Notes: generated by a model from the sequence alone, not told the origin. Counted from the first letter of the stretch, positions 118-58,353 are shown. The stretch is DNA of 64,000 bases from Escherichia coli (GCF_965641715.1 NZ_OZ282453.1), one strand, 5' to 3'. Made by a program: numbers and translations.

Positions 118-292
118 GTGCTGTATAAAAATTGCGCAATCTATCCGCTTACTTTATGATGCGCACCAGTCACGGACTGATGGTTATATAAACATAGGCT
201 GACTCGTGCAGCACAAGATTAAATTCTGGCAGATGATTTGCGTTAACCTGTTGAATCTGGCCAGAAAATAAAGTTGATTATGAGGTCCGTGA

Positions 293-3181
293 ATGCCCCG
301 CAGCACCTGGTTCAAAGCATTATTGTTGTTAGTTGCCCTTTGGGCACCCTTAAGTCAGGCAGAAACGGGATGGCAGCCGATTCAGGAAACCATCCGTAAA
401 AGTGATAAAGATAACCGCCAGTATCAGGCTATACGTCTGGATAACGGTATGGTGGTCTTGCTGGTTTCTGATCGGCAGGCAGTTAAATCGCTCTCGGCGC
501 TGGTGGTGCCCGTTGGGTCGCTGGAAGATCCCGAGGCGTACCAGGGGCTGGCACATTACCTTGAACATATGAGTCTGATGGGGTCGAAAAAGTACCCGCA
601 GGCTGACAGTCTGGCCGAATATCTCAAAATGCACGGTGGCAGCCACAATGCCAGCACGGCACCGTATCGCACGGCTTTCTATCTGGAAGTTGAGAACGAC
701 GCCTTGCCCGGTGCGGTAGACCGCCTGGCGGACGCTATTGCAGAACCCTTGCTCGACAAGAAATACGCCGAACGTGAGCGTAATGCGGTGAATGCCGAAT
801 TAACCATGGCGCGTACGCGTGACGGGATGCGCATGGCACAAGTCAGCGCAGAAACCATTAACCCGGCACACCCCGGTTCAAAGTTTTCTGGTGGTAACCT
901 CGAAACTTTAAGCGACAAACCTGGTAATCCGGTGCAGCAGGCGCTGAAAGATTTCCACGAGAAGTACTATTCCGCCAATCTGATGAAGGCGGTTATTTAC
1001 AGTAATAAACCGCTGCCGGAGTTGGCAAAAATGGCGGCGGACACCTTTGGTCGCGTGCCGAACAAAGAGAGCAAAAAACCGGAAATCACCGTGCCGGTAG
1101 TCACCGACGCGCAAAAGGGCATTATCATTCATTACGTCCCGGCGCTGCCGCGTAAAGTGTTGCGCGTTGAGTTTCGCATCGATAACAACTCAGCGAAGTT
1201 CCGCAGTAAAACGGATGAATTGATTACCTATCTGATTGGTAATCGCAGCCCAGGTACACTGTCTGACTGGCTGCAAAAGCAGGGATTAGTTGAGGGCATT
1301 AGCGCCAACTCCGATCCTATCGTCAACGGCAACAGCGGTGTATTAGCGATCTCTGCGTCTTTAACCGATAAAGGTCTGGCGAATCGCGATCAGGTTGTGG
1401 CGGCTATTTTTAGCTACCTCAATTTGTTACGTGAAAAAGGGATCGATAAACAATACTTCGATGAACTGGCTAATGTGCTGGATATCGACTTCCGTTATCC
1501 GTCAATCACCCGTGATATGGATTACGTCGAATGGCTGGCAGATACCATGATTCGCGTTCCGGTTGAGCATACGCTGGATGCAGTCAATATTGCCGATCGG
1601 TACGATGCTAAAGCAGTAAAAGAACGTCTGGCGATGATGACGCCGCAGAATGCGCGTATCTGGTATATCAGCCCGAAAGAGCCGCACAATAAAACGGCTT
1701 ATTTTGTCGATGCGCCGTATCAGGTCGATAAAATCAGCGAACAAACTTTCGCTGACTGGCAGCAAAAAGCTGCCAATATTGAGCTCTCCTTACCGGAGCT
1801 TAACCCCTATATTCCTGACGATTTCTCGCTGATTAAGTCAGAGAAGAAATATGACCATCCAGAGCTGATTGTTGATGAGTCGAATCTGCGCGTGGTGTAT
1901 GCGCCAAGCCGTTATTTTGCCAGCGAGCCCAAAGCTGATGTCAGCCTGATTTTGCGTAATCCGAAAGCCATGGACAGCGCCCGCAATCAGGTGATATTTG
2001 CGCTCAATGATTATCTCGCAGGGCTGGCGCTTGATCAGTTAAGCAACCAGGCGTCGGTTGGTGGCATAAGTTTTTCCACCAACGCTAACAACGGCCTTAT
2101 GGTTAATGCTAATGGTTACACCCAGCGTCTGCCGCAGCTGTTCCAGGCATTGCTCGAGGGGTACTTTAGCTATACCGCTACGGAAGATCAGCTTGAGCAG
2201 GCGAAGTCCTGGTATAACCAGATGATGGATTCCGCAGAAAAGGGTAAAGCGTTTGAGCAGGCGATTATGCCCGCGCAGATGCTCTCGCAAGTGCCGTACT
2301 TCTCGCGAGATGAACGGCGTAAAATTTTGCCCTCCATTACGTTGAAAGAGGTGCTGGCCTATCGCGACGCCTTAAAATCAGGGGCTCGACCAGAGTTTAT
2401 GGTTATCGGCAACATGACCGAGGCCCAGGCAACAACGCTGGCACGCGATGTGCAAAAACAGTTGGGCGCTGATGGTTCAGAGTGGTGTCGAAACAAAGAT
2501 GTAGTGGTCGATAAAAAACAATCCGTCATCTTTGAAAAAGCCGGTAACAGCACCGACTCCGCACTGGCAGCGGTATTTGTACCGACTGGCTACGATGAAT
2601 ACACCAGCTCAGCCTATAGCTCTCTGTTGGGGCAGATCGTACAGCCGTGGTTCTACAATCAGTTGCGTACCGAAGAACAGTTGGGCTATGCCGTGTTTGC
2701 GTTTCCAATGAGCGTGGGGCGTCAGTGGGGCATGGGCTTCCTTTTGCAAAGCAATGATAAACAGCCTTCATTCTTGTGGGAGCGTTACAAGGCGTTTTTC
2801 CCAACCGCAGAGGCAAAATTGCGGGCGATGAAGCCAGATGAGTTTGCGCAAATCCAGCAGGCGGTAATTACCCAGATGCTGCAGGCACCGCAAACGCTCG
2901 GCGAAGAAGCATCGAAGTTAAGTAAAGATTTCGATCGCGGCAATATGCGCTTCGATTCGCGTGATAAAATCGTGGCCCAGATAAAACTGCTGACGCCGCA
3001 AAAACTTGCTGATTTCTTCCATCAGGCGGTGGTCGAGCCGCAAGGCATGGCTATTCTGTCGCAGATTTCCGGCAGCCAGAACGGGAAAGCCGAATATGTG
3101 CATCCTGAAGGCTGGAAAGTGTGGGAGAACGTCAGCGCGTTGCAGCAAACAATGCCCCTGATGAGTGAAAAGAATGAGTGA
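293..3181 (+). CDS. ptrA: Protease III (pitrilysin), M16 zinc metallopeptidase, periplasmic
   Basis: 962 aa ORF with signal peptide and inverted zinc motif HYLEH (HxxEH); protein recognised as E. coli PtrA. Confidence 0.95.
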   Translation: MPRSTWFKALLLLVALWAPLSQAETGWQPIQETIRKSDKDNRQYQAIRLDNGMVVLLVSDRQAVKSLSALVVPVGSLEDPEAYQGLAHYLEHMSLMGSKKYPQADSLAEYLKMHGGSHNASTAPYRTAFYLEVENDALPGAVDRLADAIAEPLLDKKYAERERNAVNAELTMARTRDGMRMAQVSAETINPAHPGSKFSGGNLETLSDKPGNPVQQALKDFHEKYYSANLMKAVIYSNKPLPELAKMAADTFGRVPNKESKKPEITVPVVTDAQKGIIIHYVPALPRKVLRVEFRIDNNSAKFRSKTDELITYLIGNRSPGTLSDWLQKQGLVEGISANSDPIVNGNSGVLAISASLTDKGLANRDQVVAAIFSYLNLLREKGIDKQYFDELANVLDIDFRYPSITRDMDYVEWLADTMIRVPVEHTLDAVNIADRYDAKAVKERLAMMTPQNARIWYISPKEPHNKTAYFVDAPYQVDKISEQTFADWQQKAANIELSLPELNPYIPDDFSLIKSEKKYDHPELIVDESNLRVVYAPSRYFASEPKADVSLILRNPKAMDSARNQVIFALNDYLAGLALDQLSNQASVGGISFSTNANNGLMVNANGYTQRLPQLFQALLEGYFSYTATEDQLEQAKSWYNQMMDSAEKGKAFEQAIMPAQMLSQVPYFSRDERRKILPSITLKEVLAYRDALKSGARPEFMVIGNMTEAQATTLARDVQKQLGADGSEWCRNKDVVVDKKQSVIFEKAGNSTDSALAAVFVPTGYDEYTSSAYSSLLGQIVQPWFYNQLRTEEQLGYAVFAFPMSVGRQWGMGFLLQSNDKQPSFLWERYKAFFPTAEAKLRAMKPDEFAQIQQAVITQMLQAPQTLGEEASKLSKDFDRGNMRFDSRDKIVAQIKLLTPQKLADFFHQAVVEPQGMAILSQISGSQNGKAEYVHPEGWKVWENVSALQQTMPLMSEKNE

Positions 3182-6100
3182 TGTCGCCGAGACACTAGAT
3201 CCTTTGCGCTTGCCCTTACAGGGCGAGCGCCTGATTGAAGCCTCTGCCGGCACAGGCAAAACCTTTACGATTGCGGCGCTCTATTTGCGCCTGTTACTTG
3301 GACTAGGCGGTTCCGCCGCCTTTCCCCGCCCGCTGACCGTTGAAGAACTGCTGGTGGTCACCTTTACCGAGGCTGCCACGGCAGAATTGCGTGGTCGTAT
3401 CCGTAGCAATATCCATGAGTTGCGCATCGCCTGTCTGCGTGAAACCACCGACAATCCACTGTACGAACGTCTGCTGGAAGAGATCGACGATAAAGCGCAA
3501 GCCGCGAAGTGGTTGTTGTTAGCCGAACGGCAGATGGATGAAGCGGCAGTCTTTACTATTCACGGTTTTTGCCAGCGCATGCTCAACCTGAATGCCTTTG
3601 AATCCGGCATGCTGTTTGAGCAGCAGCTGATTGAAGATGAGTCTCTGCTACGTTACCAGGCCTGCGCCGATTTCTGGCGTCGCCACTGCTACCCGCTGCC
3701 GCGTGAAATAGCCCAGGTCGTCTTTGAAACCTGGAAAGGGCCGCAGGCGTTGCTGCGCGATATTAATCGTTATCTGCAAGGTGAAGCGCCGGTTATCAAA
3801 GCACCGCCGCCCGATGATGAAACGCTGGCTTCCCGTCACGCGCAAATTGTGGCGCGTATTGATACGGTAAAACAGCAGTGGCGCGACGCAGTGGGTGAAC
3901 TGGATGCGCTGATCGAATCTTCTGGTATTGATCGACGCAAGTTTAACCGTAGCAATCAGGCTAAATGGATCGACAAGATCAGCGCCTGGGCAGAAGAAGA
4001 GACAAACAGTTATCAGTTGCCGGAGTCGCTGGAAAAATTCTCCCAGCGTTTCTTAGAAGATCGCACGAAAGCCGGGGGGGAAACCCCGCGACATCCACTG
4101 TTTGAGGCGATCGATCAACTGCTTGCAGAACCATTGTCGATCCGCGATCTGGTGATCACCCGTGCATTGGCTGAGATCCGCGAAACAGTAGCGCGTGAAA
4201 AACGCCGCCGTGGCGAATTGGGTTTTGATGACATGTTAAGTCGGCTCGATTCCGCGCTGCGTAGCGAAAGCGGTGAGGTGTTGGCAGCGGCGATCCGTAC
4301 GCGATTCCCGGTGGCAATGATCGATGAATTTCAGGATACCGACCCCCAGCAGTACCGAATTTTTCGCCGTATCTGGCACCATCAGCCGGAAACCGCATTG
4401 TTGCTAATTGGCGACCCGAAGCAGGCCATATATGCATTCCGGGGTGCGGATATCTTCACTTATATGAAGGCGCGTAGCGAAGTTCACGCCCACTACACTT
4501 TAGACACCAACTGGCGTTCCGCACCAGGAATGGTGAACAGCGTGAACAAGCTTTTCAGACAGACTGATGACGCGTTCATGTTTCGCGAAATACCGTTTAT
4601 TCCAGTGAAATCAGCCGGGAAAAATCAGGCGTTACGTTTTGTCTTTAAAGGTGAAACGCAGCCTGCGATGAAAATGTGGCTGATGGAAGGCGAAAGCTGC
4701 GGCGTTGGCGATTATCAAAGTACCATGGCGCAGGTATGTGCTGCGCAAATCCGCGACTGGCTACAAGCCGGACAGCGGGGCGAAGCGTTGCTGATGAACG
4801 GCGACGACGCGCGTCCGGTGCGTGCTTCGGACATCAGTGTGCTGGTGCGCAGCCGCCAGGAGGCCGCCCAGGTGCGCGATGCCTTAACGTTGCTGGAAAT
4901 CCCTTCCGTTTACCTTTCGAACCGCGACAGTGTTTTTGAAACTCTGGAAGCGCAGGAAATGCTTTGGTTGTTGCAGGCGGTGATGACGCCCGAACGTGAG
5001 AACACCCTGCGCAGTGCGCTGGCAACGTCAATGATGGGGCTGAATGCGCTGGATATTGAAACGCTGAACAATGACGAACATGCGGGGGATGCGGTAGTTG
5101 AAGAGTTCGATGGTTATCGGCAAATCTGGCGCAAACGTGGCGTTATGCCGATGCTGCGGGCGCTGATGTCGGCGCGTAACATTGCAGAAAACTTGCTGGC
5201 AACGGCAGGCGGTGAGCGGCGTCTTACCGATATCTTGCATATCAGCGAACTGCTTCAAGAAGCCGGAACGCAGCTGGAAAGTGAACATGCGCTGGTACGC
5301 TGGTTATCGCAACATATCCTCGAGCCAGACAGTAATGCCTCCAGCCAACAAATGCGCCTCGAAAGTGATAAACATCTGGTACAGATTGTCACGATCCATA
5401 AATCAAAAGGGCTGGAATATCCGCTTGTCTGGTTGCCATTTATTACCAATTTCCGCGTCCAGGATCAGGCGTTTTATCACGATCGCCACTCGTTTGAGGC
5501 TGTTCTGGATCTTAACGCTGCGCCAGAAAGTGTCGATCTCGCGGAGGCCGAACGTCTGGCGGAAGATCTGCGTTTGCTTTACGTGGCGCTGACGCGTTCG
5601 GTTTGGCATTGTAGTCTCGGCGTTGCACCGCTGGTGCGCCGTCGTGGCGATAAAAAAGGTGACACCGACGTCCACCAAAGTGCGCTCGGGCGTTTGCTGC
5701 AAAAAGGGGAACCGCAAGATGCGGCAGGGCTTCGCACCTGTATTGAAGCGTTATGCGATGATGATATTGCCTGGCAAACGGCACAAACTGGTGATAACCA
5801 GCCCTGGCAGGTTAATGATGCTTTAACTGCAGAACTGAATGCGAGGACGCTACAACGATTGCCCGGCGATAACTGGCGTGTCACCAGCTACTCCGGCTTG
5901 CAGCAGCGTGGTCACGGTATCGCTCAGGATCTGATGCCACGGCTGGATGTTGATGCCGCAGGCGTGGTCAGCGTCGTTGAAGAACCGACGTTAACACCGC
6001 ATCAGTTCCCGCGCGGTGCGTCACCGGGGACATTCTTGCACAGTTTGTTTGAAGACCTCGATTTTACCCAGCCGGTTGACCCGAACTGGGTACAGGAAAA

Positions 6101-6716
6101 ACTGGAACTCGGCGGCTTTGAATCGCAGTGGGAACCGGTGTTGACCGAGTGGATCACGGCTGTCCTCCAGGCGCCGCTCAATGAAACGGGTGTTAGCCTG
6201 AGTCAGCTTTCCGACCGCGATAAACAGGTGGAGATGGAGTTTTATCTGCCGATTAGTGAACCGCTTATCGCCAGTCAGCTTGATACGTTAATCCGCCAGT
6301 TTGACCCGCTATCCGCAGGCTGCCCGCCGCTGGAGTTCATGCAGGTACGTGGCATGTTAAAAGGCTTTATCGACCTGGTGTTCCGCCACGAAGGGCGTTA
6401 TTACCTGCTTGACTATAAATCCAACTGGTTGGGTGAAGACAGTTCGGCTTACACCCAACAGGCTATGGCGGCGGCAATGCAGGCACACCGCTATGATCTG
6501 CAATATCAGCTTTATACCCTGGCGCTGCATCGTTATCTGCGCCATCGCATTGCTGATTACGACTATGAGCGCCACTTTGGCGGCGTTATTTATCTGTTCC
6601 TGCGTGGCGTTGATAAAGAACATCCGCAACAGGGGATTTACACAACCCGACCCAACGCCGGGTTGATTGCCCTGATGGATGAGATGTTTGCCGGTATGAC
6701 CCTGGAGGAGGCGTAA
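3174..6716 (+). CDS. recB: RecBCD helicase/nuclease subunit RecB
   Basis: ORF track 3165-6716; likely true start at [10 protein letters not shown] (3174); Walker A GTGKT; overlaps ptrA stop by 8 nt. Confidence 0.95.
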
Positions 6717-8542
6717 TGAAATTGCAAAAGCAATTACTGGAAGCTGTGGAGCACAAACAGCTACGCCCGCTGGATGTGCAATTTGCCCTGACCGTGGCGG
6801 GAGATGAACATCCTGCCGTCACCATCGCGGCGGCACTGTTAAGTCATGATGCCGGAGAGGGACACGTTTGTTTGCCGCTTTCACGACTGGAAAATAACGA
6901 GGCGTCGCATCCGCTGTTGGCGACCTGTGTCAGTGAAATCGGTGAGCTACAAAATTGGGAAGAATGCTTGTTGGCTTCTCAAGCGGTCAGCAGGGGAGAT
7001 GAACCCACGCCGATGATCCTCTGTGACGATCGTCTTTATTTGAATCGCATGTGGTGTAACGAGCGGACGGTAGCGCGCTTCTTCAATGAGGTGAATCATG
7101 CCATCGAGGTGGATGAAGCCTTGTTGGCGCAAACCCTGGATAAACTCTTTCCGACTGGCGATGAAATTAACTGGCAAAAAGTTGCGGCGGCAGTGGCGCT
7201 GACGCGGCGGATCTCGGTGATTTCCGGCGGCCCTGGCACCGGTAAAACGACCACCGTAGCGAAGTTGCTGGCAGCGTTAATTCAAATGGCAGACGGCGAA
7301 CGCTGCCGTATCCGTCTGGCTGCACCAACGGGTAAAGCTGCCGCGCGCTTAACCGAATCTCTCGGCAAGGCTTTGCGACAGTTACCGCTGACCGATGAAC
7401 AAAAGAAACGCATTCCGGAAGATGCCAGCACTTTGCACCGATTGCTGGGCGCGCAGCCGGGTAGCCAGCGTTTACGTCATCATGCCGGTAACCCGCTGCA
7501 TCTTGATGTGCTGGTGGTAGATGAAGCGTCAATGATCGATCTGCCTATGATGTCGAGACTGATCGACGCCTTGCCCGATCATGCGCGAGTGATCTTTCTC
7601 GGCGATCGTGATCAACTGGCCTCGGTTGAGGCTGGGGCTGTGCTGGGCGATATCTGCGCTTATGCCAACGCGGGCTTTACCGCCGAGCGTGCCAGGCAGC
7701 TAAGCCGCCTGACGGGGACTCACGTTCCGGCAGGAACTGGCACAGAAGCGGCATCTTTGCGCGACAGTCTCTGCCTGCTGCAAAAAAGCTATCGTTTCGG
7801 CAGCGATTCTGGCATTGGTCAGTTAGCTGCGGCGATCAACTGTGGTGATAAAACGGCAGTGAAAACCGTTTTTCAGCAGGATTTTACTGATATCGAAAAA
7901 CGACTTTTACAGAGCGGCGAAGATTATATTGCGATGCTTGAGGAAGCTCTTGCGGGTTACGGACGTTATCTGGATCTGCTGCAAGCGCGTGCCGAGCCGG
8001 ATTTAATCATTCAGGCGTTCAATGAGTACCAGCTTTTGTGCGCCCTGCGGGAAGGGCCATTTGGCGTGGCTGGACTGAATGAGCGAATTGAGCAGTTTAT
8101 GCAACAGAAGCGCAAAATTCATCGTAATCCGCACTCTCGTTGGTACGAAGGCCGACCGGTGATGATTGCCCGTAATGACAGCGCGCTTGGGTTGTTTAAT
8201 GGCGATATCGGTATTGCGCTGGATCGCGGGCAGGGGACGCGCGTCTGGTTTGCGATGCCGGACGGCAATATTAAGTCTGTGCAACCGAGTCGCTTGCCAG
8301 AGCACGAAACTACGTGGGCGATGACGGTACATAAATCGCAGGGATCGGAGTTCGACCATGCGGCGTTGATTTTACCGAGCCAACGCACGCCGGTAGTAAC
8401 GCGAGAGCTGGTATACACCGCGGTGACCCGCGCGCGTCGCCGTCTGTCGCTGTATGCCGATGAGCGTATATTAAGTGCGGCAATCGCCACTCGTACTGAG
8501 CGGCGCAGTGGTCTGGCGGCGTTGTTTAGTTCGCGGGAATAA
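6716..8542 (+). CDS. recD: RecBCD helicase subunit RecD
   Basis: 608 aa; Walker [11 protein letters not shown]; start ATG overlaps recB stop (TAATG). Confidence 0.95.
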
Positions 8543-11493: not shown

Positions 11494-11570
<77 letters not shown>

Positions 11571-11603
11571 TCACCGTACTGCTTTTACTTCATCAAATTT
11601 GAT

Positions 11604-11680
<77 letters not shown>

Positions 11681-11713
11681 TCACCGTACTGCTTTACTTC
11701 ATCAAATTTTAAT

Positions 11714-11790
<77 letters not shown>

Positions 11791-13124: not shown

Positions 13125-13310
13125 ATATGACAGGGTGAGGGGTAACCTCACATCCTGATTATTGACTAAGTGCGCGTTGTTCATGCCGGATGCGGCGTGA
13201 ACGCCTTATCCGGCCTACAAATCATGCAAATCCAAAATATTGCAGGAGTTATGTAGGCCTGATAAGCGTAGCGCATCAGGCATTTATGCGTTTAGGGTGA
13301 GGGATAACCT
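13125..13310. repeat. BIME-like cluster of REP palindromes between mltA and tcdA
   Basis: gccggatgcggcgtgaacgccttatccggcctac and gtaggcctgataagcgtagcgcatcaggc REP units flanked by gtgaggggtaacctcac-type palindromes. Confidence 0.6.
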
Positions 13311-14191: not shown

Positions 14192-14635
14192 TTAAACCTG
14201 CTTCGTCGCAGCGATAATCGCCTCGCTTAACGCATTTAACCCCTGGCTGCGTGAGGCGCTAAGTTGCGCACGCAATCCCAGCTCATCAAACAATGCCAGC
14301 GGCGACTGTGCCTGCAATTCGGCGGCGGTTTTCCCCTCAACGGCAGTCAACAGCACCGCCAGCAGGCCGCGCACTATACGTCCTTCGCTGTCGCCAAAGA
14401 AGTGCATTTTACCGTTTTCAGCCACGGTATATCCCAGCCAGACGCGGTTTTCGCATCCGGCAATCTCTTTAGCCTGCGCTTTTAACTCGTCTGGCAAAGC
14501 CGGAAGCTGTTTCCCCAGCATGATCAACTGGCGATATTTATCTTCCCATTGCGTCAACGGTGCGAAGGTATTGCGTAACGTTTCTGCGGTTACGGTTGTG
14601 CCGAACGGATGTCCGGCGAATTGCGGGTTCGTCAT
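14192..14635 (-). CDS. csdE: Sulfur acceptor protein CsdE (SufE-like)
   Basis: 147 aa SufE-family protein directly downstream of csdA, overlapping it by 1 nt. Confidence 0.9.
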
Positions 14636-15840
14636 TAATCCACCAATAATTCCAGCGCGCGGTCAACGGCATTCACCAGCGCATCCACATCACTCTTTGT
14701 ATTATATGGCGCAAAAGAGGCGCGCAGTGTGCCGGTTACGCCTAATTCTGCCAGTAGCGGCTGAGCGCAATGTTGCCCGGCCCGCAAGGCAATACCGTAC
14801 TCCGCCAGCAGCGTCACCATATCGCTGTGATGAACGCCAGCAAAATCAAAGGCCAGCAGGCTGGAATCTTGGCAGCGGAATGAACGAAAGCCTGGACGTT
14901 TCGCCAGCGCATCTTCCGCCAGCGTTGCTAAGCTACGGCTCCAGTTTTCGGCCTGGTTGATATCGTAATCTGCCAGCCATTCCAGCGCCGCGCTTAATCC
15001 TATGACACCAGCCACATTTGGCGTTCCTGCTTCCAGTTTCCACGGCGCAGATTGAGTCGTGAAGCCGTCAAAACTCACTTCGTGAATCATTTTGCCGCCA
15101 CCCAGCCAGGGCGACATCGCTTCCAGCAGTTCTGATTTGCCATACAGCACGCCGATACCCGTCGGGCCATACAGTTTGTGACCAGAGAAAGCATAGAAAT
15201 CGATATCCAGTTGTTGAACATCTGCGGGGAAATGCACCGCCCCCTGAGCACCATCAACCATCACCACCATCCCGGCTGAATGAGCAAAGGTAATCGCTCG
15301 TGCCAGATCCGGGCAACCGCCAGTCACGTTCGACATCTGACCCAACGCCAGAATCCGACTACGGGGAGTAATCAGTTTCGGCAACAAATCGACATCCGGC
15401 AGTCGTTGCGCATTAAGCGGCAATTTCACCACTTTGGCTCCAGTTTGTTGGGCGACCATCAGCCAGGGGACGAGGTTAGCGTGGTGTTCTGCCACGCTGA
15501 CAATAATCTCATCGCCCGGTTGCAGACGCGGACGCGCATAGCATTGTGCCACCATGTTGATGGATTCAGTGGTGCCGCGCGTCCAGACGATAGTTTTATC
15601 ATCCGGTGCATTCAGTAATTGCGCCACTTTCTCTCGTGCAGCTTCATAACTCGCGGTCAGGCGTTGGGCTTCGGCAAACTGGCTGCGATGGACGTTTCCG
15701 GCGCTCAGACTGTAAAACTGTCGGGTGGCTTCAACCACGGCTTCAGGTTTAAGCGCGGTCGCGGCGCTGTCGAGATAGACGCCCGCATCCTGTAGAGCGG
15801 GAAACTGGGCGCGAAACTGCGCGGGATTAAAAACGTTCAT
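14635..15840 (-). CDS. csdA: Cysteine desulfurase CsdA (PLP-dependent, class V aminotransferase fold)
   Basis: ORF track 14635-15876; likely true start at [13 protein letters not shown] (15840); [13 protein letters not shown]-lysine motif. Confidence 0.9.
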
Positions 15841-16275: not shown

Positions 16276-16481
16276 AAAAAAAAGCACCGCAATTAGGCGG
16301 TGCTACATTAATCACTATGGACAGACAGGGTAAATGTACAGGAAGTGAAAAAAGGTAGCTTTGCTACCATGGTCTGAATCGCAGACCAATTGCAAACACA
16401 ACAACACAACATCACAACCGTAAGCCAAAAGTTCACCAGAACACGCATTCCGACAAAACTTTTCGTTCCGGCTCAGGAAGT
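16276..16481 (-). ncRNA. gcvB: GcvB small regulatory RNA (Hfq-dependent, represses amino-acid/peptide transporters)
   Basis: Minus-strand sequence starts ACTTCCTGAGCCGGAACGAAAAG, contains the GU-rich TGTGATGTTGTGTTGTTGTGTT region, and ends in a GC hairpin plus U8; divergent from gcvA. Confidence 0.85.
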
Positions 16482-17545: not shown

Positions 17546-17941
17546 ATGACCAGCCGTTTTATGCTGATTTTCGCCGCCATTAGCGGCTTCATTTTTGTGG
17601 CACTGGGCGCTTTTGGCGCGCATGTGTTAAGTAAAACCATGGGGGCCGTTGAGATGGGCTGGATCCAGACCGGCCTCGAATACCAGGCGTTTCATACGCT
17701 GGCGATCTTAGGTCTGGCGGTGGCAATGCAGCGTCGCATCAGTATCTGGTTTTACTGGAGTAGCGTTTTCCTCGCGTTAGGCACGGTGCTGTTCAGCGGC
17801 AGCCTTTATTGCCTGGCACTGTCCCATCTGCGTTTGTGGGCGTTTGTCACTCCTGTTGGCGGCGTGAGCTTCCTTGCGGGCTGGGCGTTAATGTTAGTTG
17901 GTGCTATCCGTTTAAAGCGCAAGGGCGTAAGTCATGAATAA
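17546..17941 (+). CDS. ygdD: DUF423 inner membrane protein
   Basis: 131 aa, four predicted TM helices; overlaps rlmM start by 8 nt. Confidence 0.85.
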
Positions 17942-19866: not shown

Positions 19867-20289
19867 TTACGGTGTTACCCCTTTTTTTAAAAGAATATTC
19901 CCGTACTTCGCTCGTTCGCCTGTGATAACGATCGCAAAGGCTTTTTGCGCCCGTTCATAAAACGCAAAACGATTGATGCGGATGATGTCAGGACAGGGAG
20001 CTTGTAGTGAAAGCGCATTACGGTAACGTCGTTCTACTTCAGGATCGAGAGTGTCACCTTCTACCGCTGCCATCATCACCAGCGGCGGTGCATAACTGTC
20101 CAGCTCAAATAACGGGATAATCGCCTGGAGCAAGTCGCTCACCAACAGGCCATCAGCGCGGATCACCTGCGGTCCCATCGAATGGGCGGGAAAGTGAGCA
20201 TCGGAAAAAATAATTTCATCTCCATGTCCCATCTCTGCCAGCACTTTCAATAGTTCGGGAGAAATTAACGGCGAAATTGTTTTCAGCAT
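19867..20289 (-). CDS. fucU: L-fucose mutarotase
   Basis: 140 aa RbsD/FucU family. Confidence 0.9.
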
Positions 20290-20290
20290 T

Positions 20291-21709
20291 TCACACTTCC
20301 TCTATAAATTCAGGTTCAGTTTGCGGGTAGAAATAACGGTACTGATAATGAATCTGTGCGCGGGCTTCTTCCGGGCTGTTAAATTCCCCTACGCCATACC
20401 AACCGAACAGCGCAGCTCCTGCGACGGTCGTTTCGGCATCGTCGAGAACTTTTACCGGAATATCAAGCATATTGGCTTTAATCTGATTCCACAATGTGTT
20501 GCGACTTCCTCCGCCGACTAACAATAATTCAGAGGCTTTAAAGTGGCCGATTTTTTCCAGCATCTGTAGATTGCGCTGTAATTGCGCAGTTAACCCTTCC
20601 AGCGCCGCGCGATAGAAATGCCCCCGCGTGGTATTAAGCGTCACTCCTTGCCAGCCAGCGTTCTGACACGACAATAAATCACACTGCATTTTCACGCCAT
20701 CCGCGCCAGGCGCGATCAGACGAGCCTCTTCAATCAACATTTGCCAGGGTGTTTCAGCCGTCCAGAACAGTTTTCTCACCCATTCCAGCACGCCGGATGC
20801 CAGCCATTGCATACCTGGGTTATACAACCCTGCCTGGCTATCCAGTTCGCAGGTGGAACCGGCGTACTGACTTAACAGCGAAGTATCAACCTGGGCGCTG
20901 CGAACCATTAAAATTTCCCATGTACCGGAAGAGAGCACGGGTTCATTTTGTTCAGCACCAGCGCCAAAAAGGGCGAACTGGGTATCGTGACCTGCGGACA
21001 TCACCGGTATGCCAACGGGTAAGCCGAGCATTGCTGCGGCGCTGTTCTGTAGCGTACCAATCTGTTCACCCGCTTCCACCAGACGAGGGAAGAGTCGGCG
21101 TGGAATACCGGTGGCTTGTAAAATTTGCGGACTGAAATCGCGTTGCTGGATATCCAGCATCTGGCTGGTTCCGGCCATCGTGATATCAGTAGTGAATTCG
21201 CCGGTTAAACGGTGGTTAATCAGCGACGAAATAAAGAGCCAGGCGTGCGCGCGTTCCAGCAGTTGTGGATGATTTTCTTTCAACCACACCAACTTATATA
21301 ACGTATTGAAACTAAAGGGTCCGACGCCAGAAATAGCCTGCAACCGCTGTGCGGAGATCAACTGTTCAATATTGTCCATAACCGCTGCTGTTCGCGGACA
21401 TTTCCAGCTAATGATCGGATAGAGCAGATTGCCTTGCTTATCTACCAGAGCGCCATCCACACCAAAGGTGGTGACGGCGATACCGCGGATGTGGCATTCA
21501 GTCAGTTCACTATTGATTTGCCGACAGCAATCAGCAAAGCGTTGCAAAATGGCATCTAAAGACCACTGGTGCCAGGTGTTGTTTTCCATCGCGATATCGC
21601 TGGCATTAGGCGTTGAGGCGCGGGCAACAATTTTTCCCTGCCGATTAACCGCGATGGCCCTGACATTGGTCGCGCCACAGTCGAGTACCAGGATAACTTC
21701 TTGTTTCAT
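20291..21709 (-). CDS. fucK: L-fuculokinase (FGGY kinase)
   Basis: ORF track 20291-21739; likely start at [15 protein letters not shown]. Confidence 0.9.
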
Positions 21710-34652: not shown

Positions 34653-35019
34653 GTCGACAGGGAGTCAGACAACGAAGTGAACATCAGGATGATGACACTT
34701 CTGAAGGACACACCAGGATGGTGTTTCAGGGAAAGGCTTCTGGATGAAGCGAAGAGGATGACGCAGGACGCGTTAAAGGACACCTCCAGGATGGAGAATG
34801 AGAACCGGTCAGGATGATTCGGTGGGTCAGGAAGGCCAGGGACACTTCAGGATGAAGTATCACATCGGGGTGGTGTGAGCAGGAAGCAATAGTTCAGGAT
34901 GAACGATTGGCCGCAAGGCCAGAGGAAAAGTTGTCAAGGATGAGCAGGGAGCAACAAATGTAGCTGGAATGCTGCGAAACGAACCGGGAGCACTGTGAAT
35001 ACAGTGCTCCCTTTTTTTA
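34653..35019 (+). ncRNA. csrB: CsrB small RNA (CsrA-sequestering RNA)
   Basis: Starts GTCGACAGGGAGTCAGACAACGAAGTGAAC; about 18 GGA-containing CAGGAUG-like motifs; ends in hairpin gggagcactg...cagtgctccc plus T7. Confidence 0.9.
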
Positions 35020-35063
35020 TTCCTGCTATCCTTCGCGGCAGTTTTTCTTATTGAGGTTGCTTT

Positions 35064-35393
35064 ATGACCACTCATGACCGCGTTCGTCTCCAGTTGCAGG
35101 CGCTTGAAGCGTTACTGCGTGAACATCAGCACTGGCGAAACGATGTACCCCAGCCGCATCAATTTAATAGTACCCAACCGTTCTTTATGGACACCATGGA
35201 ACCACTGGAGTGGTTGCAGTGGGTGCTGATCCCGCGAATGCACGATTTGTTAAATAACAACCAGCCGTTACCGGGCGCTTTTGCCGTTGCTCCCTATTAT
35301 GAAATGGCGCTGGCGACGGACCATCCGCAACGCGCGCTTATTCTGGCTGAGTTGGAAAAACTGGATGCTCTTTTTGCGGATGATGCGAGCTAA
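35064..35393 (+). CDS. yqcC: DUF446 family protein
   Basis: 109 aa; stop overlaps truC start. Confidence 0.85.
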   Translation: MTTHDRVRLQLQALEALLREHQHWRNDVPQPHQFNSTQPFFMDTMEPLEWLQWVLIPRMHDLLNNNQPLPGAFAVAPYYEMALATDHPQRALILAELEKLDALFADDAS

Positions 35394-36175
35394 TGCTGGA
35401 AATACTCTATCAGGATGAATGGCTGGTTGCGGTAAATAAACCCTCCGGCTGGCTGGTTCACCGCAGCTGGCTGGATCGCGACGAGAAAGTAGTGGTCATG
35501 CAAACCGTGCGTGACCAGATAGGACAGCATGTTTTTACTGCTCATCGTCTGGACCGACCCACTTCTGGTGTGTTGTTGATGGGATTATCCAGCGAGGCCG
35601 GACGGCTGCTGGCACAACAGTTTGAACAGCACCAAATCCAGAAACGTTACCATGCGATTGTGCGCGGCTGGTTGATGGAAGAAGCGGTGCTGGATTATCC
35701 ACTGGTGGAAGAACTGGACAAAATCGCTGATAAATTTGCCCGCGAAGATAAAGGCCCGCAGCCAGCAGTGACGCATTATCGCGGTCTGGCGACCGTAGAA
35801 ATGCCGGTAGCGACCGGACGTTACCCGACCACGCGCTACGGCCTGGTGGAACTGGAGCCGAAAACCGGACGCAAACATCAGCTTCGCCGACATCTTGCCC
35901 ATTTGCGTCATCCGATTATTGGCGATAGCAAACATGGCGATTTACGCCAGAATCGCAGCGGTGCTGAGCATTTTGGTCTTCAGCGGTTAATGCTGCATGC
36001 CAGTCAGTTGTCATTGACGCATCCTTTTACTGGCGAGCCGCTGACTATTCACGCGGGCCTGGACGACACCTGGATGCAGGCGTTATCACAATTTGGCTGG
36101 CGCGGTCTGCTTCCTGAAAATGAAAGGGTTGAGTTCAGTGCGCCATCAGGTCAGGATGGAGAGATAAGTTCCTAA
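35393..36175 (+). CDS. truC: tRNA pseudouridine(65) synthase
   Basis: 260 aa RluA-family pseudouridine synthase with HRLDRPTSG catalytic motif. Confidence 0.9.
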
Positions 36176-37076: not shown

Positions 37077-38429
37077 ATGAGTTCTTTAAGTCAGGCTGCG
37101 AGCCGTGTGGAAAAACGCACGAATGCTCGTTACTGGATAGTGGTGATGTTGTTTATCGTCACATCCTTCAACTACGGCGACCGCGCTACGCTTTCTATTG
37201 CCGGTTCGGAAATGGCCAAAGATATCGGCCTTGATCCCGTGGGAATGGGCTATGTGTTCTCTGCCTTCTCATGGGCTTATGTTATCGGGCAGATCCCTGG
37301 TGGTTGGTTGCTGGATCGTTTTGGTTCAAAACGCGTCTACTTCTGGTCGATCTTTATCTGGTCGATGTTTACCTTGCTGCAAGGCTTCGTCGATATCTTT
37401 AGTGGATTCGGCATTATCGTTGCCCTGTTTACTCTGCGCTTCCTGGTCGGGCTTGCTGAAGCGCCATCTTTCCCCGGCAACAGTCGCATTGTTGCGGCCT
37501 GGTTTCCGGCGCAGGAAAGGGGAACGGCGGTGTCGATTTTTAACTCCGCTCAATACTTCGCAACGGTGATCTTCGCGCCGATTATGGGCTGGCTGACGCA
37601 TGAAGTGGGCTGGTCACACGTCTTCTTCTTTATGGGCGGTCTGGGGATTGTCATCAGCTTTATCTGGTTGAAAGTCATCCACGAGCCAAATCAACATCCG
37701 GGGGTAAATCAGAAAGAGCTGGAGTACATCGCCGCGGGTGGCGCGCTGATCAATATGGATCAGCAAAACACCAAAGTTAAAGTGCCGTTCAGCGTGAAGT
37801 GGGGGCAGATCAAACAGCTGCTCGGATCACGGATGATGATCGGCGTTTATATCGGTCAGTACTGTATCAACGCCCTGACTTACTTCTTCATTACCTGGTT
37901 CCCGGTTTATCTGGTGCAGGCGCGCGGGATGTCGATTCTGAAAGCGGGCTTTGTGGCTTCCGTTCCGGCGGTTTGCGGTTTTATCGGCGGTGTGCTGGGT
38001 GGGATAATTTCCGACTGGCTGATGCGCCGCACGGGGTCGCTGAACATTGCGCGTAAAACACCGATCGTAATGGGCATGTTGCTGTCGATGGTGATGGTGT
38101 TCTGCAACTACGTCAACGTTGAGTGGATGATCATCGGCTTTATGGCGCTGGCCTTCTTCGGTAAGGGCATCGGGGCGCTGGGTTGGGCAGTAATGGCAGA
38201 TACCGCGCCAAAAGAGATCAGCGGTCTTTCCGGTGGCCTGTTCAACATGTTCGGTAACATTTCTGGCATCGTCACGCCAATCGCAATTGGTTATATCGTT
38301 GGCACGACTGGCTCGTTTAATGGGGCGCTGATTTATGTTGGTGTTCATGCCTTAATCGCGGTACTGAGCTACCTGGTGCTGGTGGGCGATATCAAGCGTA
38401 TCGAGCTGAAACCTGTCGCGGGGCAATAA
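37077..38429 (+). CDS. gudP: Glucarate/galactarate MFS transporter
   Basis: 450 aa MFS protein. Confidence 0.9.
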
Positions 38430-38430
38430 G

Positions 38431-39771
38431 ATGACGACACAATCCAGTCCTGTTATTACTGATATGAAAGTCATTCCGGTCGCCGGGCACGATAGCATGT
38501 TGCTTAATATTGGTGGGGCACATAACGCATATTTCACCCGCAATATTGTGGTACTCACCGATAACGCCGGGCATACCGGCATTGGTGAAGCGCCGGGCGG
38601 AGAGGTGATTTATCAGACGCTTGTCGAAGCTATTCCGATGGTGCTGGGCCAGGAAGTCGCGCGCCTGAATAAAGTGGTTCAGCAGGTGCATAAAGGTAAT
38701 CAAGCAGCCGATTTTGATACCTTCGGCAAAGGTGCCTGGACTTTTGAATTGCGCGTTAATGCCGTAGCGGCGCTGGAAGCCGCCTTGCTTGACCTGTTAG
38801 GTAAGGCGCTGAATGTTCCGGTCTGCGAACTGTTAGGGCCAGGCAAGCAACGCGAGGCTATTACCGTCCTCGGTTATCTGTTTTATATCGGTGATCGGAC
38901 CAAAACCGATCTTCCTTATCTGGAAAATACGCCGGGCAACCATGAGTGGTATCAGTTGCGGCATCAGAAAGCGATGAACAGCGAAGCCGTTGTGCGTCTG
39001 GCGGAAGCCTCACAGGATCGCTACGGCTTTAAAGATTTTAAACTTAAGGGCGGCGTGTTACCTGGCGAGCAAGAAATCGACACTGTTCGTGCATTGAAGA
39101 AACGCTTCCCGGATGCGCGGATTACCGTTGATCCCAACGGTGCATGGCTGCTTGATGAAGCCATTTCTCTGTGCAAAGGGCTGAATGATGTTCTTACCTA
39201 TGCCGAAGATCCATGCGGCGCAGAACAGGGCTTCTCCGGACGTGAAGTGATGGCGGAGTTTCGGCGGGCGACCGGCTTGCCCGTCGCGACTAATATGATC
39301 GCCACCAACTGGCGCGAAATGGGCCATGCGGTGATGCTCAATGCGGTAGATATTCCACTTGCCGATCCGCACTTCTGGACGCTTTCCGGTGCAGTCCGCG
39401 TGGCGCAGCTTTGCGACGACTGGGGGCTGACCTGGGGCTGCCATTCCAACAACCATTTCGATATCTCTCTGGCGATGTTTACCCATGTGGGCGCGGCGGC
39501 ACCGGGTAATCCTACCGCTATCGATACCCACTGGATTTGGCAGGAGGGCGACTGTCGCCTGACCAAAAATCCGCTGGAGATTAAAAACGGAAAAATTGCC
39601 GTTCCTGATGCGCCCGGTCTGGGCGTGGAACTGGACTGGGAACAGGTACAAAAGGCACATGAGGCCTATAAACGTCTGCCTGGCGGTGCGCGTAACGACG
39701 CAGGTCCGATGCAGTACCTGATCCCCGGCTGGACCTTTGACCGTAAACGTCCCGTTTTCGGCCGTCATTGA
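38431..39771 (+). CDS. gudX: Glucarate dehydratase-related protein (enolase superfamily)
   Basis: 446 aa, paralog of GudD. Confidence 0.9.
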
Positions 39772-47837: not shown

Positions 47838-48086
47838 ATGATCCACAGTAGCGTAAAGCGTTGGGGAAATTCACCGGCGGTGCGGATCCCGGCTACGTTA
47901 ATGCAGGCGCTCAATCTGAATATTGATGATGAAGTGAAGATTGACCTGGTGGATGGCAAATTAATTATTGAGCCAGTGCGTAAAGAGCCCGTATTTACGC
48001 TTGCTGAACTGGTCAACGACATCACGCCGGAAAACCTCCACGAGAATATCGACTGGGGAGAGCCGAAAGATAAGGAAGTCTGGTAA
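47838..48086 (+). CDS. mazE: Antitoxin MazE (AbrB/SpoVT fold)
   Basis: 82 aa; stop overlaps mazF start (TAATG). Confidence 0.95.
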
Positions 48087-48421
48087 TGGTAAGCCGATAC
48101 GTACCCGATATGGGCGATCTGATTTGGGTTGATTTTGACCCGACAAAAGGTAGCGAGCAAGCCGGACATCGTCCGGCTGTTGTCCTGAGTCCGTTCATGT
48201 ACAACAACAAAACAGGTATGTGTCTGTGTGTTCCTTGTACAACGCAATCAAAAGGATATCCGTTCGAAGTTGTTTTATCCGGTCAGGAACGTGATGGCGT
48301 AGCGTTAGCTGATCAGGTAAAAAGTATCGCCTGGCGGGCAAGAGGAGCAACGAAGAAAGGAACGGTTGCCCCAGAGGAATTACAACTCATTAAAGCCAAA
48401 ATTAACGTACTGATTGGGTAG
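48086..48421 (+). CDS. mazF: Toxin MazF, ACA-specific mRNA interferase
   Basis: 111 aa PemK/MazF fold. Confidence 0.95.
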   Translation: MVSRYVPDMGDLIWVDFDPTKGSEQAGHRPAVVLSPFMYNNKTGMCLCVPCTTQSKGYPFEVVLSGQERDGVALADQVKSIAWRARGATKKGTVAPEELQLIKAKINVLIG

Positions 48422-53493: not shown

Positions 53494-54642
53494 TCACCAA
53501 CGGCCGGATGAACCGCCGCCTCCTGAAGAACCGCCACCACCGCGGAAAGAATTCCTCGACGAAGAGCGAGAATGAGCATTACGATTCCCCGTTTTCCTGT
53601 TGCTTTTTTCTCCTGACCCCAGCTTAAGATTGCCAGTAAATTTGGCCACAATGATCAGCAGAACGATGCCAGCAATGGTTATTGGGCCGATAAAATGATC
53701 AATTAACCCAATAATTGTTGAGATGAATGCAATATCTTTATTACTGGCGAACACCAGGCACCATCCCACAATAATTATCAGCATCACGACAAACAATGAA
53801 TTTCGTCCTGATTCACGAACCTGCGGAGTCTTCTTTTGTTTTTTCACTTTAGCGTTTTTATTTTTTGGGGCCAGCATCATAGGAAATACGCGGCACAAAT
53901 TAAAAACTACCGCGAGACGCTGCTTGCAGGTTGTTGCTAACAATAAACTAAAACAAACGACCGATACCCGCCGAATGATGACATCGTCCTGAAAGGAGAA
54001 AAACCAGACCATAGGGGTAATCATCGATATCATCCATATGCCACGCCGTGGGCGGCTGGCAAATCGCCAGAGGACAACGATGGCAACGATCATCAGCAGT
54101 GTCCAGGCAAGACATGGCAGCGAACGTTGCGGATTAGCAAACAGATGATTGGCTAAAGCATCCAAAGGGCTAAGGTTCGCTTTGATATGGGTAAACTGTG
54201 CGATGCTTTCAATTCCGCCCGTTAATCCAGCAAAGAGATTGTTTTTTTCGAATTCTGGCTGCATATGGTAACGAACAATTTGCGCAGCTTGTTCCGGCGG
54301 CAACATCTCTTCCAGTCCATGTCCAATCTTCATTGACGCCAGCCCTTCCGGCCATACGACGAGAATTAAGATACCTTCGCCATATCGCTTCTCTCCAACG
54401 GGTTTCCAGTGATATACCCCGTATCTCTGCGAGGCTGCAAGTTTAATGTTTTTGCCCCCTGTGGTCGGCGTAACCAACACGGCCACCTGGAAGTGGTTTT
54501 GCTGCTCGAGAGTCTGTAATTGTTGAGTTAAAGCAGTTTGTTCTTCTGTCGTTAATGTCCCGGTTAAGTCAGTCACTGAAGGCAATCGTTCAGCGAATAC
54601 CTGAAAACCGCATAGCATCAGAAGTAAGAGAAAAATACGCAT
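53494..54642 (-). CDS. TPM-domain membrane protein, divergent paralog 2 with long polytopic C-terminal region
   Basis: 382 aa; signal peptide; TPM-like N-terminal domain; several hydrophobic segments; tail ...RGGGGSSGGGGSSGRW; 5-nt gap to paralog 1 start. Confidence 0.75.
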   Translation of the reverse strand: MRIFLLLLMLCGFQVFAERLPSVTDLTGTLTTEEQTALTQQLQTLEQQNHFQVAVLVTPTTGGKNIKLAASQRYGVYHWKPVGEKRYGEGILILVVWPEGLASMKIGHGLEEMLPPEQAAQIVRYHMQPEFEKNNLFAGLTGGIESIAQFTHIKANLSPLDALANHLFANPQRSLPCLAWTLLMIVAIVVLWRFASRPRRGIWMISMITPMVWFFSFQDDVIIRRVSVVCFSLLLATTCKQRLAVVFNLCRVFPMMLAPKNKNAKVKKQKKTPQVRESGRNSLFVVMLIIIVGWCLVFASNKDIAFISTIIGLIDHFIGPITIAGIVLLIIVAKFTGNLKLGSGEKSNRKTGNRNAHSRSSSRNSFRGGGGSSGGGGSSGRW

Positions 54643-54656
54643 ATCAATTCCTTTTG

Positions 54657-55550
54657 TTACCAGCGCCCGGAAGCGCCACCGCCACCAGATGAACCGCCAC
54701 CACCGCTGAAATTGTCATTGTTGAATGAAGAGGATGACGATGATGAATAGTGGGAGGAAGAATTGCTTCTTGTATGGCGTGATGGCTGGTTGACATCACG
54801 CATCAAATCCCGAACTTTTTTGCCGAAGGGGGTAAAAGCGATGGCGACAGCCAGGAACGGTGTGGCGAAGCAGAGTAATGTTGCGAGTACTCCCCAGCTT
54901 CCGCTGAAGCCTGCTATAGGTAAAACAAAGGCCAGTACAATAGCTGCGAAGCAAATTACTCCCAGCGTTTTGATATATCCTCTGGCAGAAATAAACGTCA
55001 GTACTATCGCCCAGACTAACAATGCCCACCAACCGCTAAAGGGCAAAGGGTGATCGGTCGGTGTTATCGTTGCTAAATTATTCCCCGTAAGACGACTTTC
55101 AATATCGCTGATCCCCTTTTGTAAACCGCCAGCCAGGTCGCCTTTTTTAAATGCAGGAATAATACTGTTGCGAATAATTTTCCCGGACTGTGCATCCGTA
55201 ATAATACCTTCCAGCCCGTAACCGATTTCAATACGCACGGTATGATCCTGCCAGGCGACTAACAGTAGAACGCCATCATCACGGTCTTTATCACCCGGTT
55301 TCCAGCTATCGAATACCCGCGTTGCGTACTGCTCGATGGTTTCATCGCCTGTTGTATCAACCACTAACACGACCAACTGTGCGTGGTTTTTTTGCGTCAG
55401 GGCTTTAATCTGGTTGGTCAGGGTGTTTACTTCGCTGTTTGTTAATGTGCCGGTTAAGTCATTCACATACTTGGGGGATTCAGGTACTGGAATTTGTGTG
55501 GCAAACACAGATGAACAGAAGAAAGCCATAAGGAAGATAAAATTTCGCAT
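54657..55550 (-). CDS. TPM-domain membrane protein, YgcG family, paralog 3
   Basis: ORF track 54657-55580; likely start at MRNFIFLMAFFCSSVFA (55550); shares IEQYATRVFDSWK and RIEIGYGLEG blocks with paralog 1; tail ...SGGGGSSGGGGASGRW. Confidence 0.8.
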   Translation of the reverse strand: MRNFIFLMAFFCSSVFATQIPVPESPKYVNDLTGTLTNSEVNTLTNQIKALTQKNHAQLVVLVVDTTGDETIEQYATRVFDSWKPGDKDRDDGVLLLVAWQDHTVRIEIGYGLEGIITDAQSGKIIRNSIIPAFKKGDLAGGLQKGISDIESRLTGNNLATITPTDHPLPFSGWWALLVWAIVLTFISARGYIKTLGVICFAAIVLAFVLPIAGFSGSWGVLATLLCFATPFLAVAIAFTPFGKKVRDLMRDVNQPSRHTRSNSSSHYSSSSSSSFNNDNFSGGGGSSGGGGASGRW

Positions 55551-55563
55551 AGAACTTCCCCGC

Positions 55564-56184
55564 TTAATGAGCATTAGCATTCTGGCTAAAATCTATTGTT
55601 GGGGCTTTACTTACTGCGGCGACATCATCCGGTAAATAATTTTTCTTTGGCGTGTAATCCATGACCTTTGCGGTTAATACAGCGGGGAATTTGCGGATAG
55701 TGACATTATATTGTTCAATGGCTTTAATATATCTTCCTCGCGCAACGGCAATTCTATTTTCACTTCCTTCGAGCTGTACCATTAAGTTTTGATAGAGCTC
55801 TTGAGCCTTTAACTCAGGGTAACGCTCACTAATTATCGTTAACTGACCGAGAGTGCGAGTCACCTGCGCCTGGGCCTGTTGCCAGGCTTGTAATTTTTGT
55901 GCATCTCCGGGAGCTTGCTGAAGATCGCTGCTGGCGCGATTAGCCTGGCTACGAGCCAATGTTACGGCTTCCAAAACGTCTTTTTCATGGTTGGAATAAC
56001 CTTTAATACTGGCGACAAGATTAGGAATAAGATCGGCGCGACGTTGATATTGATTTAATACCTCAGACCAGGAGGCGTTAACCTGCTCATCATAGGTTTG
56101 AATATCGTTATATCCACAGCCTGATAAATTGAAAATAAATATAATTACGATGAATATCCTGAGCATGTTTAAATCCTTTTTCAT
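55564..56184 (-). CDS. lemA: LemA-family lipoprotein
   Basis: 206 aa; lipobox NLSGC; LemA blocks QRRADLIPNLV, ERYPELKA, GSENRIAVARGRY; stop lies 13 nt upstream of TPM paralog 3 start. Confidence 0.8.
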   Translation of the reverse strand: MKKDLNMLRIFIVIIFIFNLSGCGYNDIQTYDEQVNASWSEVLNQYQRRADLIPNLVASIKGYSNHEKDVLEAVTLARSQANRASSDLQQAPGDAQKLQAWQQAQAQVTRTLGQLTIISERYPELKAQELYQNLMVQLEGSENRIAVARGRYIKAIEQYNVTIRKFPAVLTAKVMDYTPKKNYLPDDVAAVSKAPTIDFSQNANAH

Positions 56185-57348: not shown

Positions 57349-58353
57349 GAGTTCCCCGCGCCAGCGGGGATAAACCGGGCGACCGGCAGGCGGCCTATGC
57401 GTTTTTCACGAGTTCCCCGCGCCAGCGGGGATAAACCGGGGCATTAGAATAACTTAAATGGAAAAAGAAAGAGTTCCCCGCGCCAGCGGGGATAAACCGG
57501 CCTTATCTCTGCTTGGATTCTCTGCTGATGTGAGTTCCCCGCGCCAGCGGGGATAAACCGCGGCGCACACGTTGTATTTGTGCTGCCTATGCGAGTTCCC
57601 CGCGCCAGCGGGGATAAACCGCCCACCAGCGCGTTTTTTGCCGGGGCCATAGTGAGTTCCCCGCGCCAGCGGGGATAAACCGGCAATGCTCGTACGCCGT
57701 CTCACTCCGCGTGAGAGTTCCCCGCGCCAGCGGGGATAAACCGCGGGGGCGCGGGGTGTGGACGCATTCACAGCAGAGTTCCCCGCGCCAGCGGGGATAA
57801 ACCGTATATGCAGTGCTGACAGACCGGGGGGCGCAAGAGTTCCCCGCGCCAGCGGGGATAAACCGGCAACGCAGGAACCGCAGGCGGTTCGTCATCTGAG
57901 TTCCCCGCGCCAGCGGGGATAAACCGCTTGCCGCGCCAGGGTATTTTTGTGTGGTCGTGAGTTCCCCGCGCCAGCGGGGATAAACCGTCCGCAACAACTC
58001 AGAGAACCAGACACCAAGCGAGTTCCCCGCGCCAGCGGGGATAAACCGTTTCGCCGCCGGGAAAATTTATATTAACGTTGGAGTTCCCCGCGCCAGCGGG
58101 GATAAACCGCGAAGCACGTCGGGGACCGTAAGGCGTTTGAAGAGTTCCCCGCGCCAGCGGGGATAAACCGCAATCCACGCCGAAGCGCTGGAAATGGAAA
58201 AAGAGTTCCCCGCGCCAGCGGGGATAAACCGTTTACCTGCTCGGTGATATCGTCCTGCAAATCGAGTTCCCCGCGCCAGCGGGGATAAACCGGGTACAAA
58301 AGAGGCCCCATTCTGGCAGGGCTCAAGTTCCCCGCGCCAGCGGGGATAAACCA
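57349..58353 (+). CRISPR. Type I-E CRISPR array: 17 repeats of 29 bp, 16 spacers of 32 bp
   Basis: Repeat GAGTTCCCCGCGCCAGCGGGGATAAACCG with exact 61-bp period from 57349; terminal repeat degenerate (AAGTTCCCCGCGCCAGCGGGGATAAACCA, 58325-58353); leader at the 57349 end sets + orientation. Confidence 0.97.

Follow-up and report, generated by a model that had tools for sequence, protein, structure and literature searches.

The window analysed here is a stretch of 64,000 nucleotides (nt) of the Escherichia coli chromosome (GCF_965641715.1, NZ_OZ282453.1), running from the 3' end of recC through ptrA, recB, recD, argA and amiC to ygcU in the same order as in NZ_CP178597.1, and the subject is the two junctions at which ptrA, recB and recD overlap. 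The first gene of this operon, ptrA, encodes pitrilysin (protease III, 962 amino acids) at 293-3181 and ends with TGA at 3179-3181, as seen both from its open reading frame (ORF) and from mapping of the RefSeq annotation. It is followed by recB (3174-6716, 1180 amino acids), which starts with ATG at 3174 and stops with TAA at 6714-6716, and by recD (6716-8542, 608 amino acids), all three on the + strand. NZ_CP178597.1 is the closest RefSeq genome (99.6% identical) and annotates the same coordinates for ptrA, recB and recD; the 47 complete genes transferred from it to the window are without exception intact ORFs. A match to the segment 2900-8700, with 95-99.6% identity, is found in 5425 of the 5426 complete E. 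coli genomes. The gene order recC / ptrA-recB-recD / argA, with argA divergent, and the orthologous proteins identify the operon. The three genes are described as being carried on a single polycistronic mRNA, while recC, which lies upstream of ptrA across a gap of 175 nt, belongs to a separate operon; PtrA is a periplasmic protease outside the RecBCD complex (eLife 2025, PMC12342828).

A first-pass annotation of the window held that recB starts 8 nt inside the 3' end of ptrA and that the recD ATG overlaps the recB stop as TAATG, and both statements agree with the ORFs and the mapped annotation. The ptrA/recB overlap, ATGAGTGA, covers 3174-3181 from the recB ATG to the last letter of the ptrA stop and is of the -8 class, with the motif ATGNNTGA. 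The recB/recD overlap consists of the single nt shared by TAA 6714-6716 and ATG 6716-6718 in the pentamer TAATG (6714-6718), which is of the -1 class; the N-terminus of RecD is placed by the protein chain PDB 1w36_D, which aligns from residue 1 to ATG 6716. Both junctions thus are co-directional start/stop overlaps of the forms NTGA, TAATG/TGATG or NTGNNTGA that make up the -4/-1/-8 class. The ptrA stop is also followed by TG, giving TGATG at 3179-3183 (+), and since recB is read in another frame than the ATG at 3181-3183, this motif by itself marks no start.

It is clear that recB begins at ATG 3174. Its frame reads TGA (3162-3164) GTG (3165) AAA AGA ATG (3174) AGT GAT GTC, and because the ORF track opens a frame at whichever of ATG, GTG or TTG comes first behind a stop, it mechanically places the start at 3165. 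The first-pass annotation suspected that this was three codons too early, and RefSeq, PDB, start-site and comparative data all show it to have been right; its sole slip was to name the codon at 3165 an ATG, where a GTG is found, the other coordinates being correct. The spurious extension GTG-AAA-AGA (3165-3173, +) adjoins the in-frame TGA and holds the A-rich stretch that is found directly 5' of the ATG. RefSeq places the start at 3174, the N-terminus of UniProt P08394 agrees, and the RecB chains in PDB (1w36_B and others) begin at the same codon, 1w36_B aligning to it from residue 1. Start-site data point to the same position. In row 645 of Table S1 of the TRAINSPOTTER N-terminomics study, recB (b2820) is listed with the database-annotated ATG start, with support from Ribo-RET and INRI-seq and with an N-terminal peptide that covers residues 2-19 of the 1180-amino-acid protein, from Ser2 (NAR 2026, PMC13245402). 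The 60-nt context printed in this row is identical to 3144-3203 of the window.

A comparative sample of 80 Enterobacteriaceae species, with RecB proteins 68-98% identical, leads to the same start. The ATG is present in all 80, and an in-frame stop lies 3-12 nt upstream of it in 64. A start of RecB at GTG 3165, which would give three extra residues (M-K-R), has in its favor that this GTG is the first start codon past the in-frame stop and that it is found in Escherichia and many Citrobacter. However, the GTG at -9 is present in only 19 of the 80 species and missing in 61, and in 53 the stretch from the preceding stop to the ATG holds no start codon in frame. It is also not preceded by a Shine-Dalgarno (SD) sequence, the curated RecB sequences all start at the ATG, the Ribo-RET and INRI-seq peaks are at that ATG, and the detected peptide starts at residue 2 of the ATG-initiated protein. 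A start at the GTG therefore has practically no probability left, and as the main start of recB the GTG is ruled out by peptide, Ribo-RET, INRI-seq and conservation. For annotation hygiene this means that an ORF track built on the first start after a stop makes recB three codons too long, and that peptide and ribosome start-site data stand behind the curated start.

The tight overlap is conserved at both junctions, but the exact junction sequence is not. Of the 5426 complete E. coli genomes, 5216 share the same 60 nt around the ptrA/recB junction and 4819 those around the recB/recD junction. Across the 80 species, ptrA and recB overlap in 78, by 4 nt (ATGA) in 46, by 8 nt in 29, by 1 nt in two and by 20 nt in one. 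The overlap of recB and recD is kept in all 80; it is 4 nt in 71 (65 ATGA and 6 GTGA) and 1 nt in nine (5 TAATG and 4 TGATG), and the TAATG found in E. coli is accordingly a minority form. More distant loci were collected through RecD homologues of 42-60% identity from a search of protein representatives, followed by retrieval of the encoding contigs. Six of these loci carry recB, and in five of the six the gene calls for recB and recD overlap (by 1, 1, 8, 1, and 4 nt). In loci without ptrA, recC stands directly before recB, with a gap of +1 nt in one of them (L086), in agreement with the published proposal of an ancestral order recC-recB-recD into which ptrA was inserted (eLife 2025, PMC12342828).

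Two loci in this material deserve mention in their own right. In Intestinirhabdus alba (L019) a GC-rich spacer of 413 nt (3588-4000 of that locus) separates ptrA from recB. It is the only large break of this junction among the 80 species and a natural case of uncoupling, and recB of this species has two extra in-frame upstream start candidates. L084 comes from a genome about 1 Mb in size. No gene is called there in the 3.4 kb (1593-5000) before the RecD homologue (45% identical), where recB would be expected, and this region may be a decayed recB.

The ribosome-binding signals of the two downstream genes differ strongly. The recD SD, GGAGGAGG, is found at 6704-6711 (+) within the last codons of recB (Leu-Glu-Glu-Ala), and its predicted duplex with the anti-SD sequence, -12.1 kcal/mol, is the strongest of the 33 junctions in the window. 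Its core is present in all 80 species, and the GGAG at -12 to -9 is nearly invariant (1.7-1.9 bits), while the rest of the RecB tail is variable. The recB signal is weak. It consists of GAG at 3163-3165 with a predicted energy of -2.5 kcal/mol, among the weakest in the window, and an SD core is found in only 17 of the 80 species. The median SD energies across the species are -3.2 kcal/mol for recB and -10.0 kcal/mol for recD. An SD inside the upstream coding sequence, which is typical of the coupled class and not obligatory, is thus present for recD and effectively missing for recB. As far as can be judged from these sequence features, a strong and conserved recD SD, a recB SD close to none and overlaps that are kept would fit a tight coupling of recD to recB together with a weak, upstream-dependent initiation of recB.

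Special RNA structure at the junctions was rejected as an explanation, as the predicted folding is no better than that of shuffled sequences (z -1.43 and +0.89 for recB, +0.32 and -0.32 for recD). Nor did consensus scans, which are weak evidence, find promoter-like sites near the junctions (three such sites in 8.7 kb, against 6.6 expected) or a convincing terminator-like site at them, and an internal promoter or terminator thus has nothing beyond chance to support it.

Several other gene pairs in the window are joined in the same way. The first-pass annotation had noticed that TAATG recurs at yqcC/truC and mazE/mazF, and the mapped gene ends confirm this. The yqcC/truC pentamer is found at 35391-35395 (+; yqcC 35064-35393, truC 35393-36175), with homology to RluA/RluC from TruC residues 2-4, and that of mazE/mazF at 48084-48088 (+; mazE 47838-48086, mazF 48086-48421), where MazF matches PDB chains from residue 1. 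Three further cases had not been listed. csdA/csdE share a fourth TAATG at 14633-14637 (-), with the csdE N-terminus given by N-terminomics rows 642-643; ygdD/rlmM have a second 8-nt overlap, ATGAATAA, at 17934-17941 (+), the rlmM start being given by N-terminomics row 640; and two mapped genes encoding TPM-domain proteins overlap by the 4 nt GTGA at 53494-53497 (-). In the closest genome, the region corresponding to 54642-55564, which separates the second TPM gene from the LemA gene, contains a truncated TPM-domain pseudogene. Gaps of 1 nt, inside the reported range for reinitiation, are found at fucK/fucU (TGAAATG, 20289-20291, -) and gudP/gudX (TAAGATG, 38429-38431, +).

The pentamer itself is unremarkable, with 161 copies in the window compared to 136 +/- 10 in shuffled sequences, and stop codons followed by TG are found in six of the 47 genes where about 3.2 are expected, one of the six being the ptrA stop with its out-of-frame ATG. 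What is not due to chance is the position of the pentamer exactly at verified gene boundaries, and the gaps between neighbors follow the canonical -4/-1/-8 pattern. For the 33 co-directional pairs the smallest gaps are -8, -8, -4, -1, -1, -1, -1, +1, and +1, and the next is +17. Seven of the 33 pairs overlap, and about 15% of co-directional pairs do so in most groups (Huber et al.); -4, -1, and -8 are the three spacings found to be enriched in prokaryotic genomes (Huber et al.; J Bacteriol 2025 review). TAATG recurs in the window because the -1 class of overlap is common. It can be ruled out as an element shared by recB/recD, mazEF and yqcC/truC, given its 161 copies and the unrelated operons.

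Taken together, the junctions represent the normal, conserved architecture of ptrA-recB-recD, and our analysis makes it likely that translation of these genes is coupled, probably by termination-reinitiation. A ribosome that ends ptrA at UGA 3179-3181 would be a few nt away from the recB AUG, and a share of such ribosomes could re-initiate there. Since recB has almost no SD and only the A-rich stretch in front of its start, its output would be low and would track the translation of ptrA. A ribosome ending recB at UAA 6714-6716 would sit right on the recD AUG, where GGAGGAGG, 4-11 nt upstream, would retain it, and RecD would then be made roughly in step with RecB. The same SD would also permit fresh initiation at recD.

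Work on other gene pairs supports such a course of events. Of native E. coli pairs with a 4-nt overlap, four out of five were found to be strictly coupled, and removal of the SD reduced reinitiation by 60-90% or abolished it (Huber et al.). It has further been shown that coupling is lost when the distance between stop and start exceeds about 20 nt, and that subunits of heteromeric complexes are 4.5-fold over-represented among E. coli pairs spaced from -8 to +10 (Huber et al., later study). RecB and RecD, as partners in one such complex, belong to the category enriched among tight pairs. The ribosome-binding site of recB has been noted to lie inside ptrA, "suggesting" coupling (eLife 2025, PMC12342828). 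The first-pass annotation had taken the overlaps as a sign of coupling between the RecBCD subunits. The overlap class, the conservation and the published suggestion are all consistent with coupling as such; with regard to the subunits the claim has to be narrowed, as only the step from recB to recD joins two of them, PtrA being outside RecBCD and recC lying upstream in a separate operon.

Some observations weigh against coupling or speak for the view that the overlaps are functionless by-products of genome compaction and of drifting starts and stops, with recB and recD initiated afresh by free 30S ribosomal subunits. In the literature searched, no premature-stop experiment was found for ptrA/recB or recB/recD, and the E. 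coli pairs that have been tested were all -4 overlaps, none of them -8 or -1 (Huber et al.). One of these five pairs, bioBF, was uncoupled and showed de novo initiation despite its overlap (Huber et al.). INRI-seq is a cell-free method using short synthetic RNAs in which operons are broken up, and its support for the recB start means that, at least in vitro, translation of ptrA is not required for ribosomes to find this AUG. The very strong recD SD would be sufficient for independent initiation. TAATG is a common pentamer, and the excess of stops followed by TG in the window is not significant. Separated genes are also tolerated in some lineages (L019, L077, L083 and L087). Two of the 80 species have non-overlapping ptrA and recB, with a +2 gap in L077 and the 413-nt spacer in L019; a gap of 190 nt is called between recB and recD in the distant locus L087; and a gap of +16 nt is a further natural exception. 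Independent initiation at both recB and recD is therefore possible. On the other hand, the overlap is kept in 78 and 80 of the 80 species while its form switches between -8, -4, and -1, which resembles a maintained tight spacing and not drift. The gaps in the window skip from +1 to +17, and those below zero take the values -8, -4, and -1 only. Furthermore, 13 of 14 overlapping pairs tested were strictly coupled (Huber et al.), and the recB SD is too weak for efficient independent initiation. We therefore regard overlaps without a function as unlikely, though not negligibly so.

Coupling could also operate through RNA unfolding. In that case, translation of the upstream gene would open a fold in which the downstream start is buried, and another 30S subunit would then initiate at it. 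The mechanism ranks as one of two generally accepted models (J Bacteriol 2025 review), and the recD SD and AUG can be drawn into a modest hairpin. The model needs a stable inhibitory structure covering the downstream SD and start, and such a structure is seen at neither junction; the z values given above (-1.43 to +0.89) show no more stability than in shuffled sequence. In addition, the final 15 nt of the upstream gene were enough for coupling in tested native pairs, and coupling was strictly local (Huber et al., later study). Unfolding is thus an improbable route here, more so than overlaps without function, and termination-reinitiation is the preferred mechanism.

If recB is coupled to ptrA by reinitiation, this might also bear on the control of RecB by Hfq. 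The binding site of Hfq lies immediately 5' of the ribosome-binding site of ptrA, and deletion of this 36-nt site in K-12 increased the number of RecB molecules per mRNA from 7.9 to 16.3, the level found in a delta-hfq strain (eLife 2025, El Karoui laboratory, PMC12342828). That a deletion 2.9 kb upstream doubles RecB per mRNA is what a relay through coupling predicts. The counterpart of this site in the ptrA 5' untranslated region of the present strain lies at 243-278 (+) and matches the published K-12 sequence with differences at three of the 36 positions. Binding of Hfq within the coding sequence of recB has been described as well (eLife 2025, PMC12342828), and the Hfq effect need therefore not go via ptrA translation, which is a further point against reading the deletion as support for coupling. 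A tentative extension, to which we give somewhat less than an even chance, is that ptrA, when inserted between recC and recB in an enterobacterial ancestor, took over the tight upstream place of recC, and that the SD-less recB would from then on have been translated mainly by ribosomes terminating on ptrA. This would provide a physical route by which Hfq could set the RecB copy number, and it would mean that the output of a DNA-repair enzyme is subordinate to the translation of an unrelated periplasmic protease. The idea of a relay through ptrA is hinted at in the same paper (PMC12342828).

Outside the operon, the window contains a number of other features. An array of clustered regularly interspaced short palindromic repeats (CRISPR) is found at 57349-58354 (+) between queE and ygcE, where E. 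coli carries its type I-E "CRISPR2" array. It consists of 17 copies of the 29-nt repeat GAGTTCCCCGCGCCAGCGGGGATAAACCG with a period of 61 nt and spacers of 32 nt, and a degenerate copy of the repeat lies near 58858-58887. The array probably explains why the window is about 800 nt longer in this part than the closest genome. The ORFs at 57444-58366 (-) were rejected as genes, as they are translations of the repeat with the recurring peptides VYPRWRGEL, GLSPLARGT and RFIPAGAGNS. Rfam matches above the gathering score identify the small RNAs (sRNAs) CsrB (34662-35021, +), GcvB (16276-16481, -) and ES036 (13218-13260, +), as well as three tRNA genes (11497-11790, -) that are tRNA-Met in the annotation of the closest genome.

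Beyond annotation the junctions matter little, and their modest biological interest lies in the low amount of the enzyme. RecBCD is present in fewer than 10 molecules per cell, and over-expression can reduce DNA repair (eLife 2025, PMC12342828). Low copy number and harmful over-expression make it a real question how the cell holds RecB and RecD at low and matching levels. The comparative data presented here add one small point and nothing new in kind; the mildly new angle is that coupling of recB to ptrA might carry the control by Hfq from the ptrA leader to RecB.

In comparison with known systems, the closest is the K-12 operon itself (b2821-b2820-b2819), which has the same genes, order, starts and stops, and 60 nt identical at each junction. 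The present strain deviates from it only by ordinary polymorphisms, such as the three mismatches in the Hfq site. The 1986 sequence papers on recB and recD by Finch et al. in Nucleic Acids Research reportedly described both overlaps. The coupled -4/-1/-8 pairs (Huber et al. 2019, 2023; J Bacteriol 2025) display the same motifs, ATGNNTGA for -8 and TAATG for -1, and recD has its SD inside the upstream gene. In E. coli, coupling was measured there for pairs of the -4 type only; ptrA/recB moreover links a protease of the periplasm with a cytoplasmic helicase-nuclease subunit and not two subunits of one complex, and recB lacks a real SD. The coupled operons cited as precedent for recB (PMC12342828) likewise have starts and stops that overlap or abut within a polycistronic mRNA, and the dependence of the downstream gene was shown genetically there, whereas here we infer it. 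mazE/mazF, csdA/csdE and yqcC/truC have the same -1 overlap, TAATG, as recB/recD, but in unrelated operons. Both the overlaps and the suggestion of coupling have thus been published before, and the two junctions are ordinary members of the ubiquitous -8/-4/-1 class and not specific to this locus; the finding is correct but ordinary, as junctions of this kind have long been known and are very common in bacteria.

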